Shown here: one piece after another, positions 7,477-38,370 of the stretch
Position numbering within the stretch: position 1 is the first letter of the stretch
Layout: every line of letters starts with the position of its first letter
Source of the DNA: an uncultured Gemmatimonadota bacterium
GTDB lineage: Bacteria > JAAXHH01
Direction: 5' to 3'
Assembly: GCA_951812955.1 (NCBI GenBank)
Contig: OX638340.1
Span: forward strand, 2,848,001 to 2,912,000
DNA length: 64,000 bases
Program-made: the position numbers and the translations under genes
The notes under the pieces: generated by a model
What the model was told of the DNA's origin: nothing
Seen by the model: the letters and a program-made list of their open reading frames with translations, nothing else
Databases searched by the model: none

Positions 7477-8322
7477 TCACGACCAGTCCCCGCAACCGAG
7501 AAACGTCATGTGCTTCCCGGCCTCGTACGCGGGAAACTTCCGATAGGTGTTGATTCCTTCGACGGGACTGCCGCGGAACAGGAAAAGACAGGGCCACTCC
7601 CGCGTGACCTTCGTCGTCGCGGGCATGTACTGGATCGAGCCGCCCCGCCTCCACGCGTTGCTCTCGTTCGGATTGGAACCATGCAACAGCAGCGGGTGAT
7701 GGACCGAGACGTCTCCGGGCGACAGGACCAGGTCGACCGCCTGGCTTTCGTCGAACGCTTCCGGATCGGCCTGGTTGAGGATGTAGTTGTCTGTGCTCTC
7801 CGGGGAGTGGCTGTGCAGACCGGATCTGTGCGATCCGGGGATCACGCGGACACAACCATTGGAGGGCAACGAGGCGGTGATGGCGAACCAGACGGTAATG
7901 ACCTCCAAGGGCTCGAGGGGCCAGTAGTGGCCGTCCTGGTGCCAGTGGACGCCCCTGCCCCTTCGGGGCGGCTTGCAGATGTAATCCGCCGCGAAAAAGG
8001 CCACGTTCGGACCGACCAGGGCTTCCGCCACGTCCAGCAGGTTGCGGTCGCTGAGGAAACGCACCCAGAAGGGATCGCCGGCTATGAGCCAGTGTCCCAA
8101 CGATTCGGGAGGCAGATCGGGGTGGCGGTCCATCAACCAGTCGATATGCCGGTCCGCCTCTCGAATCAGTCCGGCGGGCAGGACATTACGCACGATGACG
8201 AAGCCGTCCCGTTCGTAGTCTTCTCCGATGTCCTGAATTTGTGGATAAGTAAACTCAGCCACGCAGTCTGACCTCGAGTACGGACGGTCGATCCCTGTCC
8301 GGAAGACCGTCCGCTGATCCAA
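7477..8322 (-). CDS. phytanoyl-CoA dioxygenase (PhyH) family Fe(II)/2OG oxygenase
   Basis: HWHQDGHYW (H-x-D) and VIPGSHRSG (second His) motifs. The start may be the GTG at about 8262 (VAEFTYPQ) rather than the ATG at 8322. Confidence 0.8.
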   Translation of the reverse strand: MDQRTVFRTGIDRPYSRSDCVAEFTYPQIQDIGEDYERDGFVIVRNVLPAGLIREADRHIDWLMDRHPDLPPESLGHWLIAGDPFWVRFLSDRNLLDVAEALVGPNVAFFAADYICKPPRRGRGVHWHQDGHYWPLEPLEVITVWFAITASLPSNGCVRVIPGSHRSGLHSHSPESTDNYILNQADPEAFDESQAVDLVLSPGDVSVHHPLLLHGSNPNESNAWRRGGSIQYMPATTKVTREWPCLFLFRGSPVEGINTYRKFPAYEAGKHMTFLGCGDWS

Positions 8323-12838: not shown

Positions 12839-13729
12839 TCAGAAACCGGCGATCTGGCGGCCGCCGAAGGTCAATCGGTACATGAGCCGTTCATAGCGCG
12901 TATCGTCGAAGGGCGTCGGGGCGTGCAGCGTACACCGGTTGTCCCAGACCACCAGATCGCCCGGGCGCCATCGGTGCATGTATGTGTATTCATCCTGCGT
13001 CGCATGCTCCTGCAGGCCATACAGCAGCGCCTCGCCCTCCGACTTTTCCAGACCCTCGACGGACTCAATGTGGCAGAGGGGGAGATAGAGCGATTTCCGA
13101 TTGGTCTCCGGATGCCGGGCGACCAGGGGCCGGACAATCGGGGGAAACTGCTCGAGGAGCGCCTTGCTGAGCGGTGGCCGGTGCCGGTTTTTCTTCCTGA
13201 GCAGTTCGTTTAGATGATTGTAGGAATGGACGGTTCGGATGGAGTCGATGCGTGCCTTGACGTCGTCCGGCAGGCCCTCGTAGGCCGCGGTCATCCCCGC
13301 GAAGCCCGTCTCCCCGCCCTCGGGAGGCGTGCGTACGCAGAACAGGCAGGAACCGGCCGGCTGGGGATGGCGGAATGAATCGTCCATGTGCCACAGCAAC
13401 GGCGGTGGGTCCGCCTGGATGAAAAGAGCGGTGTGCATGCCGTCCTTCCTGGCATTGCCGATCCGCAGTATGTCGGGATAGTGCGGCACCAGGAAATCCG
13501 GATCGTATTTCTCGTTTCCCTCCGGCGTCCCGAAACGGGTCACGAATCTCAGGAGATCGGCGGGATCGATATGGCCTTGATCACGGATGAGGATCAATCC
13601 ACCCGCTTCGTGAAACGCGGCAATGGCCTGGTTGACCATGGTTTCATCGAGCCTTGCGAGATCCAGGCCGTCGAGTTCGGCTCCGAAACCGGACCGGGTA
13701 ATCGGGATGCAATTGGTTTGTGTGATCAT
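12839..13729 (-). CDS. TauD/TfdA-family Fe(II)/2-oxoglutarate dioxygenase
   Basis: MITQTNCIPI...WHMDDSF...LYLPLCHIES...VVWDNRCTLHAPTPF is typical TauD architecture. Start at the internal ATG (13727-13729) with GGAG upstream; the 198 residues before it in the track ORF are Arg-rich junk. Confidence 0.85.
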   Translation of the reverse strand: MITQTNCIPITRSGFGAELDGLDLARLDETMVNQAIAAFHEAGGLILIRDQGHIDPADLLRFVTRFGTPEGNEKYDPDFLVPHYPDILRIGNARKDGMHTALFIQADPPPLLWHMDDSFRHPQPAGSCLFCVRTPPEGGETGFAGMTAAYEGLPDDVKARIDSIRTVHSYNHLNELLRKKNRHRPPLSKALLEQFPPIVRPLVARHPETNRKSLYLPLCHIESVEGLEKSEGEALLYGLQEHATQDEYTYMHRWRPGDLVVWDNRCTLHAPTPFDDTRYERLMYRLTFGGRQIAGF

Positions 13730-13845
13730 GGTGGAGACGAACTCCGGTACGGTCAGGTGACTGGAAGGGACGCTCCGCACAGCGCAATTTCCCGCGACCG
13801 TGCAGCGCGATTTTCTGCTCCGCACAGCGTAGTGTCCCGCTCCGC

Positions 13846-14934
13846 TCAGCGCAGTTTCCCGCGGCCGAGAATAGGCCATACGGTCTCGACGACCCCGTTG
13901 CGGATTCCGTAGAGGTGGTCGTGAAGAAACAGGGTGACGTCGGTGTAGGCCACCATGAGGTCGAGTTTGTCGCCGACGGCGATTTCGTGATTTGGACTGT
14001 TGAAGGTCACGGTGCCGTGTTCCGCCGACATGCGCACGCTCTTTACGTCTTCGACGCCCACCGGCATGGGCATGCCGAACCACGCGGGCACCGTCTTGAA
14101 CCCGGCGTCCACGATTAGCCGGTCCGGTTCGGGGCGGCTGGTGACCGAAACGTGCACGTATATCGCCGGGTCGGTCCGAACCCCCCAGAGGGAATACATC
14201 ACGTCGTTGAAGATCGCGCCGCCCGCCTGGATCTCGGTGATCCCTTCCAGGTCGGGTGTAACCGACAGTGTGCCGCTTCCTCCGCCGCTCACGATGTCGC
14301 AGGGCAGTCCCGCGGCCCGGCACCGTTCCGCGGAATCCACGAGGTCTCCCACGGCCCGTCTGATCTCCCCGTGTTTCCAGTCGGAGCCTTCCTCCACGCA
14401 GGCATGTCCCTCCCAGGCCATGACGCCCCGGAATCGCAGGCCTGCAGTCTCGTGGACCTTGCGGGCGAGTGCGACGACCGCGTCACCGGGCCGGACTCCG
14501 GCCCGTTCCATGCCCGTGTTCAGTTCGATGAGCACGCCGACTTCGACGCCGGTTTCGACCGCGGTGCGACCCAGGTCCACCAGCGTGGCGTCGCTGTCGA
14601 CGGCGACTTTCACGTCCGCCTGCCTGCAGAGATGGGCCAACCGGGTGTATTTCGGCGGACCCACCACCTGGTTGGCGATCAGGAGGTCCTCGACGCCTCC
14701 CGCGACCATGACCTCGGCCTCGCCGAGCTTGGCGCAGGTGACCCCGATCGCGCCGGCCTTCAACAATCTGTGGGCAATTGCCGGGATCTTGACGCCCTTG
14801 ATGTGCGGGCGCCAGTCCACGCCGGCCTCTTTCAATCGATTCCCCACGGTTCGAATGTTGCTTTCGAGGCGATCCAGGTCTACCCACAGCACCGGGGTAT
14901 CCAGATCCTCCTTATGTATTCCGATCTCGTCCAA
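13846..14934 (-). CDS. DSD1-family PLP enzyme (alanine-racemase-N-like; D-serine dehydratase / D-threonine aldolase-like)
   Basis: 362 aa, N-terminal alanine racemase-like TIM barrel (PHIKGVKIPAIA, the Lys is the PLP lysine) and a C-terminal D-serine-dehydratase-like beta domain. Confidence 0.75.
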   Translation of the reverse strand: MDEIGIHKEDLDTPVLWVDLDRLESNIRTVGNRLKEAGVDWRPHIKGVKIPAIAHRLLKAGAIGVTCAKLGEAEVMVAGGVEDLLIANQVVGPPKYTRLAHLCRQADVKVAVDSDATLVDLGRTAVETGVEVGVLIELNTGMERAGVRPGDAVVALARKVHETAGLRFRGVMAWEGHACVEEGSDWKHGEIRRAVGDLVDSAERCRAAGLPCDIVSGGGSGTLSVTPDLEGITEIQAGGAIFNDVMYSLWGVRTDPAIYVHVSVTSRPEPDRLIVDAGFKTVPAWFGMPMPVGVEDVKSVRMSAEHGTVTFNSPNHEIAVGDKLDLMVAYTDVTLFLHDHLYGIRNGVVETVWPILGRGKLR

Positions 14935-19550: not shown

Positions 19551-20801
19551 ATGCTGACGGGTGACCTCCTCCGCGTCCGTTTTCGTAAGGGCCGGATCCA
19601 TCTTCCCTATATCGATGATCAGGATCCCGATCACCTCGGGATCGCCGAAACGCTGATCCGGATTTTCGAAAACCACGAGGGCGGAACCCGCCAGGAACTG
19701 GATGAAGAGCTGGCGGATACGACCGGCAGCGGGACGGAATTCCTGTTTCATCGCGGACTGGCCAAGTTGCTGCGGGACCGCTGTACGTTCGAGTCGGCGT
19801 CACCCGTCGACCCTGCGGATCTTCGAAGGCGGATCTTCGCGGCCGCTGCCGCGGCATACAGCACGGATCAGGTCCGCATCGACCGGGAGGCCATTCTGGC
19901 CGCGGCGGGTGCGCCGGACGCCCTGGATGTCACGCAGGTGGAAGGAACTTTCTACGCCGATCTGAAGGAAGCCGAACGGCTCAAGTCATTCAAGCCCTGT
20001 ACGCCCGGATGGCTCTTGAGCAGGTACAACGTCGCCCTGGCCCAGGCCGCCCTGCTGCGGGCATCCGGAATGGATATGCTCGTGGAAGGAGAAAGTCCGG
20101 CCCGTTATCGTGAACTCTTCCGCAAGATGAAGTTCTTCCGCCTGCTCCACGAAATCCGGCAGACCGGTCCGGGGAAATACCACGTTCACGTTGACGGTCC
20201 CATGTCGCTCTTCAAGTCATCCCAACGCTACGGACTGCAGATCGCCCAGTTTCTCCCTTCCGTGCTGCACTGCCAAACCTGGCAAATCACGGCTTCTATT
20301 GTCTGGGGCGCCGCGCGCCGTGAAGGTGTATTGAAATTGACGCCTGAAACGGGGTTGAAACCGGTAGGCCCTTCTACGGGACAGTGGATACCCGAAGAGG
20401 TGGCCTGGCTCGAAGACCGGTTTAACCGGCTTAAAACGGATTGGCGCATTTCGGCCGGGACGGACGTCATCGACCTGGGCGGCCAGGGTGTACTGGCTCC
20501 CGAGTATATCCTCACCCATCTACCCACCGGGATGAGCGTATACCTGGAATTCCTCGGATACTGGCGCTCCGAAGGTGTGAGGACGCGCCTGGAACTGCTG
20601 GGCAGATACGGCCCTCCGAACATGATCCTGGCGATTTCCGCGGAACTGGGCGTGGATGAAGAAGCATCGACGGATATTCCCGGCGAGGTCTATGCGTACC
20701 GACGGACACCCGTCGCCCGCGACATCCTGAAAATCCTGGAAAACATGGTTAAAACCCATCCAGGCGCATCGGCGGGAACCCTGGATTTGTTCGACCCCTA
20801 G
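19551..20801 (+). CDS. DUF790-family protein (Bax1-like nuclease partner of XPB)
   Basis: 416 aa, translationally coupled (3-bp gap) to the XPB-like helicase, with AGGGAGG upstream. Size and position match the DUF790/Bax1 proteins encoded beside XPB in archaea and actinobacteria. The family assignment rests on recall of that family and its gene context, not on a verified motif. Confidence 0.6.
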   Translation: MLTGDLLRVRFRKGRIHLPYIDDQDPDHLGIAETLIRIFENHEGGTRQELDEELADTTGSGTEFLFHRGLAKLLRDRCTFESASPVDPADLRRRIFAAAAAAYSTDQVRIDREAILAAAGAPDALDVTQVEGTFYADLKEAERLKSFKPCTPGWLLSRYNVALAQAALLRASGMDMLVEGESPARYRELFRKMKFFRLLHEIRQTGPGKYHVHVDGPMSLFKSSQRYGLQIAQFLPSVLHCQTWQITASIVWGAARREGVLKLTPETGLKPVGPSTGQWIPEEVAWLEDRFNRLKTDWRISAGTDVIDLGGQGVLAPEYILTHLPTGMSVYLEFLGYWRSEGVRTRLELLGRYGPPNMILAISAELGVDEEASTDIPGEVYAYRRTPVARDILKILENMVKTHPGASAGTLDLFDP

Positions 20802-23618: not shown

Positions 23619-24479
23619 ATGCGCGCAGAACAGGTCGTCCTCGACTCATTGCGCCAGTGGGCGGAAGAGCATGACAACATCCGCGGCATGGTCCTGACGA
23701 GTTCCCGGGTCAACGAAGACGCGGTCCTGGACCTGATGTCGGACTACGACGTGGAGGTCTATGTGACCGACCAGCAGTGTTTCGCGGGGGGCGATGAATG
23801 GCTGGAGGCATTCGGCCCCGTGTTAATACGTTGGCCTGCGTGCCCTGCCTGGGACGAGGAGGGCGGGTTGTATCGCCTTGTGATCTATGAAGACGGCGTA
23901 CGGATCGACTGGGGAGTAAAAAAGGTTGAGCAAATGAAAAGGTTCAATGGTCCTTCCCAACCCTACAGAGTGCTGGTGGACAAGGACCGGCGCGTCGAAA
24001 ACCCGCTCCAGACGAGTTATGCCGGTTTCAACATCACCCGGCCTTCGAAGACAGAATTCGATTCGATGATGCATGACTTCTGGTGGGACCTCACCTACGT
24101 GGCGAAAAGTCTCTGGCGCGACGAAATTTACTGGGCGAAGTACATGTATGGCAGACGGCACTTCAAGGAGCTCGAAAAGGTCATCGAATGGTACATCGGC
24201 ATGCATCACGAATGGTCTGTCAACACCAACAAGCACGGCCGGTGGTTCAAGCGGTACCTGGACGAAGATACGCTGGAAGAAATCGATTCCACCTTTGCGG
24301 GCGCGGATATCAAGGAAAACTGGACCGCGCTGTTCAACATGACCCGGCTGTTCAGGCGGCTTTCCGTCGCGGTCGCAGATGAACTGGGTTTCGATTACCC
24401 CCATGATTCCGACCGGCGCGTTACGGCGTACATGGACAAGATCAGGCGCCTGGACCGGGACGCGGAGGATTTCGTATGA
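23619..24479 (+). CDS. aminoglycoside 6-nucleotidyltransferase ANT(6)/AadK-family protein
   Basis: 286 aa, collinear with ANT(6): LTSSRVNEDAVLDLMSDYDVEVYV and FWWDLTYVAKSLWRDEIYWAKYMYG match conserved ANT(6) blocks. Confidence 0.7.
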   Translation: MRAEQVVLDSLRQWAEEHDNIRGMVLTSSRVNEDAVLDLMSDYDVEVYVTDQQCFAGGDEWLEAFGPVLIRWPACPAWDEEGGLYRLVIYEDGVRIDWGVKKVEQMKRFNGPSQPYRVLVDKDRRVENPLQTSYAGFNITRPSKTEFDSMMHDFWWDLTYVAKSLWRDEIYWAKYMYGRRHFKELEKVIEWYIGMHHEWSVNTNKHGRWFKRYLDEDTLEEIDSTFAGADIKENWTALFNMTRLFRRLSVAVADELGFDYPHDSDRRVTAYMDKIRRLDRDAEDFV

Positions 24480-24614
24480 AGACTGGTGTAATTTTTTATA
24501 GCGGTTATTCGAACTGACATATTGTACAATTGTACAATAGGCAAGCACGAGCAGGTAAGCTGGTTCTGTTAGACTATTCACCATTTCAGGGTACATAATA
24601 TCGGAGAACCCAAG

Positions 24615-26153
24615 ATGAGGGCACTGCTCGAGAAACTGAATATCGAGGCACTGAACGCCGGGGCCTGCACGGGGATGGACGGCTGGATTCATGGCGAGGG
24701 GCCGATTCTGACGTCATACAACCCGACGACCGACGAACCGATCGCGGGCGTGCGGCAGGCGACACCCGAGGTTTACGACCGGGTAATCGAACACGCCCGC
24801 GGGACCTTCGAGGACTGGCGGATGATACCCGCTCCCAAGCGGGGCGACATGGTACGGGACCTGGGCAATATACTGCGGGCGTACAAGGAACCGCTGGGTG
24901 AACTCGTTGCCCTGGAAATGGGAAAGATCCGCGTGGAAGGCATGGGGGAAGTCCAGGAGATGATCGACATCTGCGATTTTGCCGTCGGCCTTTCGCGCCA
25001 GTTGTATGGACTGACCATCGCGAGCGAACGGCCCAGTCACCGCATGAGCGAGCAGTGGCACCCGCTGGGGGTGGTCGGCATCATTTCCGCCTTCAACTTT
25101 CCGGTCGCGGTCTGGTCGTGGAACGCTTCCCTGGCCTCGGTGTGCGGCGACGTCACCGTGTGGAAGCCCAGCGGGCAGACGCCCCTTACGGCCGTAGCCA
25201 CGCAGCACCTGTGCAACCGGGTCATGGCGGACCACGGCGTGGACGGCGTGTTCAACCTGGCCATCGGGCGCGGCAGCGACGTGGGCAATCTCATGATCGA
25301 CGACGAACGGATCCCCATCGTTTCCTTCACGGGTTCTACCGCCACCGGCAAGACTGTGGCCTCGCGGGTCGCGTCCCGTTTCGGCAAAACGATTCTGGAG
25401 CTGGGCGGCAACAACGCGATCATCGTAACCGAGAACGCCGACCTGGAACTGGCTGTGCCCAGCATCGTGTTCGGCGCCGTGGGGACGGCCGGACAGCGGT
25501 GCACGTCCACGCGGCGTATTATCGGGCACAGGAGCCTGACGTCAACCCTGATCGATCAGCTGGCCCGCGCATACGCACAGGTTCCAATGGGAGATCCTGT
25601 CGATGACACTACCCTCATGGGACCGCTGGTCACGGCCGACGCGGTGGACGACATGATGCAGGCCATCGAGCAGGCGAAATCCGAGGGCGGCGAGGTGATA
25701 ACCGGTGGCAACCGTCGTCCGGACCTGGGCTCCAATTTCGTCGAGCCGACGATCATCCGCATGCCAGCACAGACGGATATCGTGAAGCAGGAGACTTTCG
25801 CACCGATACTCTATATCCTTGAGTATGATACCATGGACGAGGCCCTTATCCTGCATAACGACGTGCCCCAGGGCCTGTCGAGCGCAATCTTTACCGACAG
25901 CCTGCGCCAGGCGGAACGCTTTCTCTCCGCCGGGGGATCGGATTGCGGCATCGCGAACGTGAATATCGGCACTTCGGGCGCCGAGATCGGCGGGGCCTTC
26001 GGCGGCGAAAAGGAAACGGGAGGCGGGCGCGAGTCGGGTTCGGACGCGTGGAGAGCCTACATGCGCCGCCAGACCAATACCGTCAACTGGTCGACCGATC
26101 TCCCGCTGGCCCAGGGGATCGAGTTCGGCGCCGGTGAATCGGACGATGACTGA
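24615..26153 (+). CDS. ALDH7-family aldehyde dehydrogenase (alpha-aminoadipic semialdehyde / piperideine-6-carboxylate dehydrogenase-like)
   Basis: 512 aa with an ALDH fold and ILELGGNNAIIV (the ALDH7 variant of the ELGGK motif), a catalytic Cys region (GQRCTSTRR) and about 510 aa of ALDH7 collinearity. Confidence 0.9.
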   Translation: MRALLEKLNIEALNAGACTGMDGWIHGEGPILTSYNPTTDEPIAGVRQATPEVYDRVIEHARGTFEDWRMIPAPKRGDMVRDLGNILRAYKEPLGELVALEMGKIRVEGMGEVQEMIDICDFAVGLSRQLYGLTIASERPSHRMSEQWHPLGVVGIISAFNFPVAVWSWNASLASVCGDVTVWKPSGQTPLTAVATQHLCNRVMADHGVDGVFNLAIGRGSDVGNLMIDDERIPIVSFTGSTATGKTVASRVASRFGKTILELGGNNAIIVTENADLELAVPSIVFGAVGTAGQRCTSTRRIIGHRSLTSTLIDQLARAYAQVPMGDPVDDTTLMGPLVTADAVDDMMQAIEQAKSEGGEVITGGNRRPDLGSNFVEPTIIRMPAQTDIVKQETFAPILYILEYDTMDEALILHNDVPQGLSSAIFTDSLRQAERFLSAGGSDCGIANVNIGTSGAEIGGAFGGEKETGGGRESGSDAWRAYMRRQTNTVNWSTDLPLAQGIEFGAGESDDD

Positions 26154-26223: not shown

Positions 26224-27093
26224 ATGTCATCCAACGGGGCGTTTATCATAGACAAGAACCTGGGCGCGCGCCTGGACGAGACCCAGGCGGATCTGCCGAA
26301 GGCCAATTCCGATGGCGAAGCGGTCGTCCCGCCGACGGATGAACAGAAATACCTGTTCGACAAGGACGGCTGGCTCCTGTTGCCCGGGGTGCTGTCCGAG
26401 GCCGAATGCGTGGAGATGCGGGCGTTCTGCCTGCAGTTGCACCATGATCCGGAGTCCATCCCCGAACCCGAGCGTTCTGTCCTCGGCGGACCATTACAGC
26501 GCCTGACGGACCACCCATTGGTGGTGGGTTTCATGAACGAATTTCTGGCCTACCCCGGCCTGTCCAGCCAGATTTGCTACGGTTTCCGTCAGGAATCTGC
26601 CAGTTTATTCTACCGGGAATCCGGTGACGGCGCCTTCGGCCCTCATAACGGCAACGGCATGCTGCGTTTCCCGGGCGACTCCCATCTCTACCGCTGTATT
26701 CCTGGCAAGGCCAACTCCGCGCTGACAAGGGTGGTCTGGGAACTGAACCCGGTCACGGAGGGGAACGGAACGCTGCTGGTATCCGGAAGCCACAAGGCCG
26801 TCTTCCCCGCGCCGCCGTCCATACAATCGCCGGACTCGCCGATCTGGAACACCTATACCTGTCCGCCAGGATCGTTGATATTCTTCACCGAGGCCCTCAC
26901 CCACAGCGGCAGGCCCTGGATCGACGAGGAGCATCCGCGGATCGCCGTCTTCAGTTGCTACAACTCTGTCAACAGCAAGTGGCACAACTGGGACCCGCAC
27001 CCCGAGCTTCTTGCTTCCATGCCGCCCCTCAGACAGACCCTCTACCGTCCGGTTCACGTGGCTGGCAACCTGGTGGGTGGCGAGGTACACTGA
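26224..27093 (+). CDS. PhyH-family Fe(II)/2OG oxygenase with an H-x-G variant of the first iron-binding motif
   Basis: FDKDGWLLLPGVL start, GPHNGNG where paralogs in this window have WHQD, and VSGSHKAVFP as the second His motif. Confidence 0.75.
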   Translation: MSSNGAFIIDKNLGARLDETQADLPKANSDGEAVVPPTDEQKYLFDKDGWLLLPGVLSEAECVEMRAFCLQLHHDPESIPEPERSVLGGPLQRLTDHPLVVGFMNEFLAYPGLSSQICYGFRQESASLFYRESGDGAFGPHNGNGMLRFPGDSHLYRCIPGKANSALTRVVWELNPVTEGNGTLLVSGSHKAVFPAPPSIQSPDSPIWNTYTCPPGSLIFFTEALTHSGRPWIDEEHPRIAVFSCYNSVNSKWHNWDPHPELLASMPPLRQTLYRPVHVAGNLVGGEVH

Positions 27094-27193
27094 GCGTGGT
27101 TTCGATCAGGGTGCCGGGGAACTGGGATTGCCGATCAAACAGGGATTGCCGATCGAACATGGGAGGCCCTGAAGAAAGGGAAGGCCGGCGTAT

Positions 27194-37430: not shown

Positions 37431-37584
37431 AACCTGCTCCGGCTAAAAAACTTGCCTGTTGTACAGGCGCCTTTAAATTGGGTCGAGAGTATTCCAAAAT
37501 ACAGACAGATCTTCATAGCTGGCAAGGGTGATTTTCCCAAACCAGGAAGGCGTGTCCCGGCTCGGTGCTGAAGGGAGATTTATC

Positions 37585-38370
37585 ATGTCTGCGGCACAAT
37601 CGGAAGCCCATCGTGGACTGACCATCGAAGCGGTCGGAGCGTTCCAGGACCAGGGGTTCCTGGTAGCCGGAAAATTGCTAGAGGACGATCACGTGGAAGT
37701 ACTGCGTGCGGAGTACGACCGCTTATTCGAAACGGCGCGTGAGAGCGGCCGTTACCGCAACCTTTCCATCGACGATACGGAAGACAAGAACCGGAAGAAC
37801 AGAGCCCGGACGCAGATGCTTCAGATCATGCAGATGTGCGAACGCAGCATCGAGTTCAGAAGACTGTTGTATCATGAACCCATCCTGGACATCGTCGAAT
37901 CACTGCTGGGACCCAATATCCAACTTTTCCACGACCAGGCGCTATACAAGCCGCCTCGTCAGGGCGGTCCCGTCTTCTGGCACCAGGACAACGGTTACTG
38001 GCAGTGCTCGCCAGCCAATCTGGTCAGCTGCTGGCTCACGCTGGATGACGTGGACGTGTCGAACGGGGCCATGCACCTGATTCCCGGGTCGCACCGGCAC
38101 CTGGTCTCCCATGAACGATCGGCCGAAACCAGCGCCCTGCTCGACCTCGGCGACCAGGCGGCTACGCAAAAGGCGACCGTGGTCGACCTGCCCGCGGGCG
38201 GCGCCATGTTCCACCACTGCCAGACCATGCACCACACCCCGGAAAACGTCACCGACCGGCCGCGCAGGGCTTTCGCCATCCATTACATGACGCCCGGCAC
38301 CAAATCGATCAGGACCGGGGACTACCTGGACGTATCGTTCTCCCGTCCTATGTTGCGGATGAGGGTGTGA
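37585..38370 (+). CDS. PhyH-family Fe(II)/2OG oxygenase
   Basis: FWHQDNGYW (H-x-D) and LIPGSHRH. Start at MSAAQSEAH with GGGAGA upstream. Divergent from the E1 alpha gene. Confidence 0.8.
   Translation: MSAAQSEAHRGLTIEAVGAFQDQGFLVAGKLLEDDHVEVLRAEYDRLFETARESGRYRNLSIDDTEDKNRKNRARTQMLQIMQMCERSIEFRRLLYHEPILDIVESLLGPNIQLFHDQALYKPPRQGGPVFWHQDNGYWQCSPANLVSCWLTLDDVDVSNGAMHLIPGSHRHLVSHERSAETSALLDLGDQAATQKATVVDLPAGGAMFHHCQTMHHTPENVTDRPRRAFAIHYMTPGTKSIRTGDYLDVSFSRPMLRMRV

Follow-up and report, generated by a model that had tools for sequence, protein, structure and literature searches.

A PhyH-superfamily oxygenase with an H-x-G motif and a predicted HygX-type iron site from an uncultured Gemmatimonadota bacterium

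Sequence features of the H-x-G oxygenase

The stretch of DNA analysed in this study (the window) comprises 64,000 nucleotides (nt) of contig OX638340.1 (positions 2,848,001 to 2,912,000 of the forward strand; GenBank assembly GCA_951812955.1) from an uncultured Gemmatimonadota bacterium, and all coordinates below refer to positions in this window. An open reading frame (ORF) on its plus strand (26224–27093, stop codon included) encodes a protein of 289 amino acids which matches the Pfam PhyH family and has HygX as its closest solved relative. The protein carries H141-N142-G143 in place of the canonical H-x-D motif and is referred to as the HxG protein hereafter. As judged from its sequence and from the conservation of the residues involved, the HxG protein is most likely a PhyH-superfamily Fe(II)/2-oxoglutarate (2OG) oxygenase with a metal site of the HygX type.

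The first motif (motif 1, H-x-G) is encoded by the codons CAT AAC GGC at 26644–26652. H141 is predicted to bind the iron as its proximal ligand, and G143 is located at the position of the canonical Asp. The second motif (motif 2, E-x3-H) consists of E223-A-L-T-H227 (26890–26904), in which E223 is predicted to supply the carboxylate from its new position and H227 to be the distal of the two histidine ligands. R169, encoded by AGG at 26728–26730, is the counterpart of Lys137 in HygX, and R239 (26938–26940), present 12 residues past the distal histidine, is predicted to bind the C5-carboxylate of 2OG. The sequence G188-S189-H190-K191 (GSHK, 26785–26796) is a general motif of the PhyH family and is not predicted to contain the distal iron ligand.

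The match of the ORF to the Pfam PhyH model (PF05721) is weak though above the cutoff (27.1 bits against a cutoff of 22, E 6e-6), and this match together with a PhyH-type double-stranded beta-helix fold places the HxG protein in the PhyH superfamily. The canonical facial triad of the form H-x-D/E...H is absent, since H141-N-G143 stands in place of H-x-D. The arginine expected about 11–12 residues past the distal histidine in PhyH enzymes is present as the invariant R239. In human PhyH this arginine is Arg275, located 11 residues past His264, and it is from such PhyH-family structures that the 2OG-binding role of R239 is predicted.

Conservation of the motif residues

The HxG protein is a member of a large family. 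A word-based search identified 716 proteins at E ≤ 1e-3, the best 120 of which are all at least 65% identical to it, and an exhaustive search of representatives at the same threshold identified 659 cluster representatives. In 29 homologs of 64–92% identity, H141, N142 and G143 do not vary at all. A hidden Markov model (HMM) alignment of 270 relatives, fragments included, reaches down to about 30% identity, with around 160 sequences covering both sites. The pattern H-G...E-H-R is present in 149 of these sequences, while H-V...E-H-R and H-A...E-H-R are present in five and two, respectively. Position 143 is G, V or A in every covering sequence but one, the exception being a tyrosine in a partial sequence, and neither Asp nor Glu is found at this position among the 270 relatives. 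Revertants combining H-x-D with the loss of E223 were also sought in the same 270 sequences and none was found. The replacement of H-x-D by H-x-G, which had been pointed out in an earlier reading of the window made without database searches (the sequence-only reading), is therefore borne out by the family as a whole. Because the motif is conserved across homologs, it is neither a one-off substitution nor a sequencing error.

Conservation of the other polar residues follows a similar course. H141, H190, E223, H227 and R239 are invariant or near-invariant down to about 29% identity; among these, E223 is invariant and H227 near-invariant across the whole range of 29–100% identity. R169 is kept in at least 90% of an alignment of 54 sequences. 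An uncommonly high number of aromatic residues and arginines is also invariant in the homologs of at least 64% identity (W50, Y119, R122, R131, Y156, W172, W208, Y211, W232, Y246, W253, W256 and R275). Such an aromatic- and arginine-rich composition, seen here over protein residues 50–256, is often found in pockets that bind carbohydrates or anions.

The canonical W-H-x-D motif is present in four PhyH-like paralogs of the window, in agreement with the sequence-only reading, which had noted WHQD and WHHD. These are WHQD at 7933–7944, WHMD at 13382–13393 and WHHD at 30921–30932, all three on the minus strand, and WHQD at 37978–37989 on the plus strand. In the family profile, H141 aligns with the histidine of the H-x-D motif of AndA (PHRD) and EctD (WHSD), and G143 is therefore at the canonical carboxylate position. 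The distal ligand histidine of the solved PhyH-type enzymes aligns with H227 in every alignment. The sequence-only reading had taken the histidine of VSGSHK as the second histidine of the triad. However, this residue is H190 of the general PhyH motif GSH[KR], which appears as GSHR in the H-x-D paralogs of the window and as GSHK in HygX, and the distal ligand is predicted to be H227 instead. The position four residues before the distal histidine is occupied by P, S, G, Q or C and not by Glu in the canonical H-x-D relatives, including the four paralogs of the window. H-x-G and E-x3-H thus go together.

The canonical PhyH hydroxylases (human PhyH, EctD, AndA, GriE and the proline hydroxylase H11) are similar to the HxG protein in their fold, in their GSHK-type motif and in where the two histidines and the 2OG-binding arginine are located. 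Several of these hydroxylases have free amino acids or small polar metabolites as their substrates. They contain H-x-D/E and no Glu at position −4, in contrast to the HxG protein, which has Gly at the Asp position and E223 in motif 2.

Comparison with HygX

HygX of Streptomyces hygroscopicus (PDB IDs: 4XC9, 4XCA, 4XCB and 4ZPI) is an Fe(II)/2OG oxygenase which forms the orthoester of hygromycin B. Its iron site has been described in a review as H-x-G...E-x3-H, where the acidic residue has moved and Lys137 occupies the gap left by the glycine (PMC13374393). HygX is the best PDB match of the HxG protein by single sequence (E 3e-4) and also by family profile (E 7e-20), the next match by profile being at 1.7e-8. 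It is at or near the top in both fold searches, and ranks 1–14 in Foldseek are all HygX chains. In all alignments E223-A-L-T-H227 pairs residue for residue with E202-A-L-M-H206 of HygX, and R169 is placed opposite K137 in every one of them.

Localization of the HygX counterpart of motif 1 needed a comparison of the two families. For this, 86 homologs of HygX were collected and 23 of them, spanning 30–100% identity, were aligned. In the chain numbering of 4XCB, which is the native numbering plus 3 (chain H105 and G107 are native H102 and G104), the invariant residues of the HygX family are H105, G107, E205, H209, R220 and GSHK, with K140 kept in at least 90% of the sequences. Motif 1 of this family is L-H-[N/G]-G with the consensus L-H-N-G, and only this L-H-x-G is invariant. 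Profile-profile alignment of the HxG and HygX families by hhalign (probability 99.87%, E 1.6e-31) pairs H141 with H105, G143 with G107, R169 with K140, E223 with E205, H227 with H209 and R239 with R220 (HygX residues in chain numbering). The paired residues make up the invariant core of each family, and the complete non-canonical iron site predicted from these alignments is common to the two.

Two other placements of motif 1 were tried and rejected. Sequence-sequence and profile-sequence alignments put His102 of HygX opposite the variable E132 and left H141 unmatched, a placement which is 9 residues out and is due to a chance match of YGFR with YGLR. An alignment of the window paralogs and HygX by MAFFT offered another HygX sequence, H-D-G, as the partner of motif 1; its histidine varies in the HygX family.

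A metagenomic protein of 255 amino acids (P0356), found with HygX as the query at 31% identity, resembles the wider HxG family (…LRLDHDYAMFLQPGGDGLYLHGGG…FTEALMHGT…). This protein links the HxG and HygX families and helped to reveal the correct register of motif 1.

The features shared by the HxG protein and HygX are H-x-G at motif 1, E-x3-H and a basic gap-filling residue, although the latter is Arg in the HxG protein and Lys in HygX. Glycoside cyclisation within an orthosomycin or aminoglycoside cluster, which characterises the HygX type, is not indicated by the gene context. No aminoglycoside or orthosomycin biosynthetic context is present around the HxG gene, where the neighbours are an aldehyde dehydrogenase (ALDH), a kinase/phospho-lyase fusion, pyridoxal 5'-phosphate (PLP) enzymes and other PhyH genes. 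HygX belongs to an aminoglycoside biosynthetic cluster of actinomycetes, whereas the HxG family is found in uncultured bacteria of sponges, corals and the water column (Latescibacterota, Poribacteria, Caldilineaceae and others), where its gene neighbourhoods look catabolic. In comparison to HygX, the HxG protein is extended at its N-terminus by about 35 residues, which contain the conserved sequence 'FIIDKNLG', and its C-terminus is longer. HygX contains about 6 extra residues past H-x-G, while the HxG protein contains about 9 extra residues before the strand leading to H-x-G.

A first AlphaFold2 model, generated from 29 close homologs, was too poor around the motif, with a predicted local distance difference test (pLDDT) score of 77 and residues 144–155 below 50. 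The model generated from 54 sequences, distant representatives included, has a mean pLDDT of 91.4 and a predicted template modelling (pTM) score of 0.91. In the model, H141 is located in a beta-bridge past the strand formed by residues 122–131, E223 directly past the strand formed by residues 217–222 and H227 in the next short strand.

Predicted iron site and alternative explanations

Taken together, we consider it quite probable that the HxG protein is a PhyH-type oxygenase with a relocated-carboxylate iron site and a normal Fe(II)/2OG cycle. The iron would be held by His141 of H-N-G and by Glu223 and His227 of E-x3-H, which would amount to a complete 2-His-1-carboxylate site in which the carboxylate has moved. 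Arg239 would anchor 2OG, and Arg169 would take up the room vacated by Gly143. With three ligands from the protein, a bidentate 2OG and O2 around the iron, no coordination site would remain free for a halide, and hydrogen abstraction by the ferryl species would therefore be expected to be followed by oxygen-centred chemistry and not by chlorination. The outcome might be hydroxylation or, as in HygX, oxidative formation of a C-O bond. As judged from the genomic context, the substrate may be a small and polar compound with an amine or a hydroxyl group.

Several observations weigh against this assignment. The ligand set of HygX, from which the coordination geometry of the HxG protein is deduced by homology, is itself taken from a review (PMC13374393), and the ligands proposed here are assigned by homology and conservation. 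The identity between the HxG protein and HygX is only about 22%, and the single-sequence alignments are out of register by 9 residues near motif 1, which was fixed only by the profile-profile alignment. Two fragments (P0159 and P0244) have Gly at position 223, possibly because of misalignment. Moreover, the gene context varies between lineages.

The loss of the motif-1 carboxylate is also the hallmark of another group of enzymes, and the sequence-only reading had accordingly put forward a free-substrate halogenase as a candidate. In such a carrier-protein-independent Fe/2OG halogenase, Gly143 would remove the carboxylate, a halide would bind in its place and the substrate radical would rebound onto chloride or bromide. 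G143 does provide the Gly or Ala which replaces the triad carboxylate in halogenases. However, the Fe/2OG halogenases of the SyrB2, CurA-Hal, WelO5 and BesD/HalB types have no replacement carboxylate and leave a halide site, whereas the HxG protein conserves an invariant E223 which, by homology, is placed exactly at the relocated iron-binding Glu of HygX (E202) and would be an alternative carboxylate at the metal. Nor are halogenases the closest neighbours of the HxG protein in sequence or in fold. No halogenase is present among the sequence neighbours at E ≤ 0.01 in the family-profile search, and in the fold comparison halogenases appear only at ranks 15, 24, 33 and 49, well below HygX and the ordinary PhyH oxygenases. 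The NCBIfam model TIGR01762 ('chlorinating enzyme') gives no match to the HxG protein at E ≤ 1, although it is weakly matched by a neighbouring canonical PhyH protein of a related locus. The gene context, in addition, is of a catabolic or primary type and not that of a natural-product cluster. A halogenase activity of the HxG protein therefore appears highly improbable to us.

The sequence-only reading had also allowed that the carboxylate might come from elsewhere in the protein, for example from SGDG. The general idea agrees with the predicted role of E223, but SGDG is a poor source, as D135 varies between D, E and Q even among close homologs. Two further residues had been named as possible ligands, D150 and H152; their numbers were off by two, and the residues meant are D152 and H154 of GDSHLY. 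A site using Asp135 or Asp152 as the carboxylate, or His154 as the motif-1 histidine, would be consistent with the invariance of D152 and H154 in homologs of at least 64% identity and with the alignment of H154 to a nearly invariant histidine of the HygX family (T-H-T-Y). H154 thus probably matters, perhaps for the second sphere or for binding of the substrate. However, D152 and H154 are lost in the wider family at 29–59% identity, where H141, E223 and H227 persist, and it is H141 and not H154 that aligns with the motif-1 histidine of AndA, EctD and HygX, which makes these residues very unlikely ligands. The HxG protein might otherwise have lost its triad altogether and be a non-catalytic, metal-free protein of the PhyH fold, either a pseudo-enzyme or a binding protein. 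The missing canonical Asp and the weak Pfam score of 27 bits are in favour of such a loss, but the two histidines, the glutamate, the 2OG-binding arginine and GSHK are strongly conserved across phyla, and HygX is catalytically active with a matching set of residues. Among the explanations considered we find this one the hardest to believe.

Significance of the relocated carboxylate

A triad with a relocated carboxylate, a rare form of the active site, has been known before from HygX. The new point is that this triad marks, as a conserved signature, a large and uncharacterised family abundant in the phyla of sponge symbionts; the best-matching genomes are those of sponge- and coral-associated Latescibacterota, Poribacteria and Caldilineaceae. 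The motifs H-x-G and H-x-A are widely used as a quick flag for halogenases in genome mining, and the present family suggests that this flag fails unless a relocated carboxylate, here E-x3-H, is checked for. With its 289 residues and a defined set of predicted active-site residues, the HxG protein is a tractable enzyme through which the effect of the relocated carboxylate and of the gap-filling basic residue on reactivity could be approached.

Gene neighbourhood and possible pathway

Upstream of the HxG gene, on the same strand and separated by a gap of 70 nt, is a gene for an ALDH of the L-piperideine-6-carboxylate/2-aminoadipate-semialdehyde dehydrogenase type (24615–26153, plus strand), which matches Pfam Aldedh and the NCBIfam equivalog NF050084 (776.8 bits against a cutoff of 730). 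A promoter-like site is present at 24570–24599, and no terminator-like site was seen on the plus strand between the ALDH and HxG genes, although evidence of this kind is weak. The two genes are probably co-transcribed in the source lineage.

Convergent to the HxG gene is a gene for a fusion protein of 1041 amino acids (27194–30319, minus strand) comprising an APH-type kinase, an M23 domain and a phospho-lyase of the class-III aminotransferase fold (Pfam APH, Peptidase_M23 and Aminotran_3). The fusion matches NCBIfam PRK06148, which is named only 'hypothetical protein', at 1283.9 bits against a cutoff of 1128. The C-terminal domain of the fusion is matched by the human phospho-lyase of ethanolamine phosphate (6TOR, E 2e-155) and by a phospho-lyase from bacteria (5G4I, E 6e-99). 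No solved relative of the kinase domain was found at E ≤ 1e-3. Next to the fusion are the second PhyH oxygenase, with W-H-H-D (30402–31313, minus strand; Pfam PhyH E 3e-8), and a SelA-like, DgaE-family PLP enzyme (D-glucosaminate-6-phosphate ammonia-lyase type; 31388–32593, plus strand), which scores below the family cutoffs. With this enzyme the block has two deaminating PLP enzymes, and it hints at catabolism of amino-sugar acids or hydroxy-amino acids.

Orthologs that are 96–98% identical to the HxG protein are found in related, sponge- and coral-associated metagenome-assembled genomes labelled Latescibacterota or Gemmatimonadetes. The block of genes for ALDH, HxG oxygenase, kinase/phospho-lyase, second PhyH and DgaE-like enzyme is kept only in Latescibacterota-type genomes, with orthologs at least 79% identical. 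The conservation of this neighbourhood was considered as a clue to the substrate and rejected, because unrelated genes (ANT(6) and FG-GAP) are kept alongside, which indicates synteny by descent. In a single freshwater 'Zixibacteria' contig, the HxG oxygenase gene is followed by an aldo-keto reductase gene and then by the kinase/phospho-lyase fusion.

Other lineages show other arrangements. In 25 Poribacteria loci, a gene for a HemL-like class-III PLP enzyme is located directly upstream of the HxG gene on the same strand. In 22 loci, all of that Poribacteria group, a divergent gene for a PhyH-HEAT fusion of about 460 amino acids is present as well (L039–L087), upstream of the HemL-like gene and about 2–4 kb upstream of the HxG match. 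The N-terminal domain of these fusions is related to the second PhyH of the window (28–31% identity, E 1e-12 to 1e-17). It is possible that a trio consisting of the H-x-G oxygenase, a class-III PLP enzyme and the second-PhyH type has been conserved, in rearranged form, across two phyla. A canonical PhyH gene is located upstream of the HxG gene in 14 loci, and other loci have neighbours of the GFO/IDH/MocA (sugar-dehydrogenase) or sugar-isomerase type. That genes for class-III PLP enzymes are repeatedly found nearby is suggestive of a substrate carrying an amine.

One tentative idea, which we regard as unlikely, is that the HxG enzyme catalyses the entry step of an undescribed catabolic route in sponge symbionts, oxidising a host-derived amine such as free L-lysine (at C5) or a derivative of hydroxylysine or of an amino sugar. 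In this speculative scheme, which agrees with the local gene arrangement and would be chemically sensible, the oxygenase would hydroxylate next to an amine, the fusion protein would phosphorylate and eliminate, and the ALDH would oxidise the product. Starting from lysine, the intermediates might be 5-hydroxylysine, 5-phosphohydroxylysine and 2-aminoadipate semialdehyde, with 2-aminoadipate as the end product. A parallel is offered by PhnY* and PbfA, where a vicinal amino alcohol produced by an enzyme of the PhyH type undergoes elimination by a lyase of the class-III fold (PMC8154272). If the scheme were true, sponge symbionts would degrade lysine or hydroxylysine via 5-phosphohydroxylysine, and the relocated-carboxylate triad would be in wide catalytic use in primary metabolism instead of being peculiar to one antibiotic enzyme.

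Apart from the second PhyH gene, the window contains three additional PhyH-like ORFs with canonical W-H-x-D (7477–8322 and 12839–14323 on the minus strand, 37528–38370 on the plus strand). Their presence in one 64-kb window fits the expansion of PhyH genes reported for Poribacteria, which is extraordinary and unexplained (PMC3909097).

A few other features of the surroundings were observed. A gene resembling the ANT(6)/AadS family of aminoglycoside 6-adenylyltransferases (23619–24479, plus strand; below cutoffs) is located two genes upstream of the HxG gene, which may be a coincidence. A gene for a Bax1/DUF790 endonuclease (19551–20801, plus strand) is located further upstream, and in an orthologous locus (L003) it is preceded by an XPB-type helicase gene. 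In one orthologous genome (OZ245326.1; L012, 10868–16427), about 5.5 kb are inserted between the genes for the HxG oxygenase and the kinase/phospho-lyase, which are otherwise adjacent. Finally, the gap of 100 nt between these two convergent genes in the window contains two tandem units of 18 nt (AACTGGGATTGCCGATCA and AACAGGGATTGCCGATCG, 89% identical) at 27120–27155, which may serve for the binding of a protein or be what is left of a terminator.

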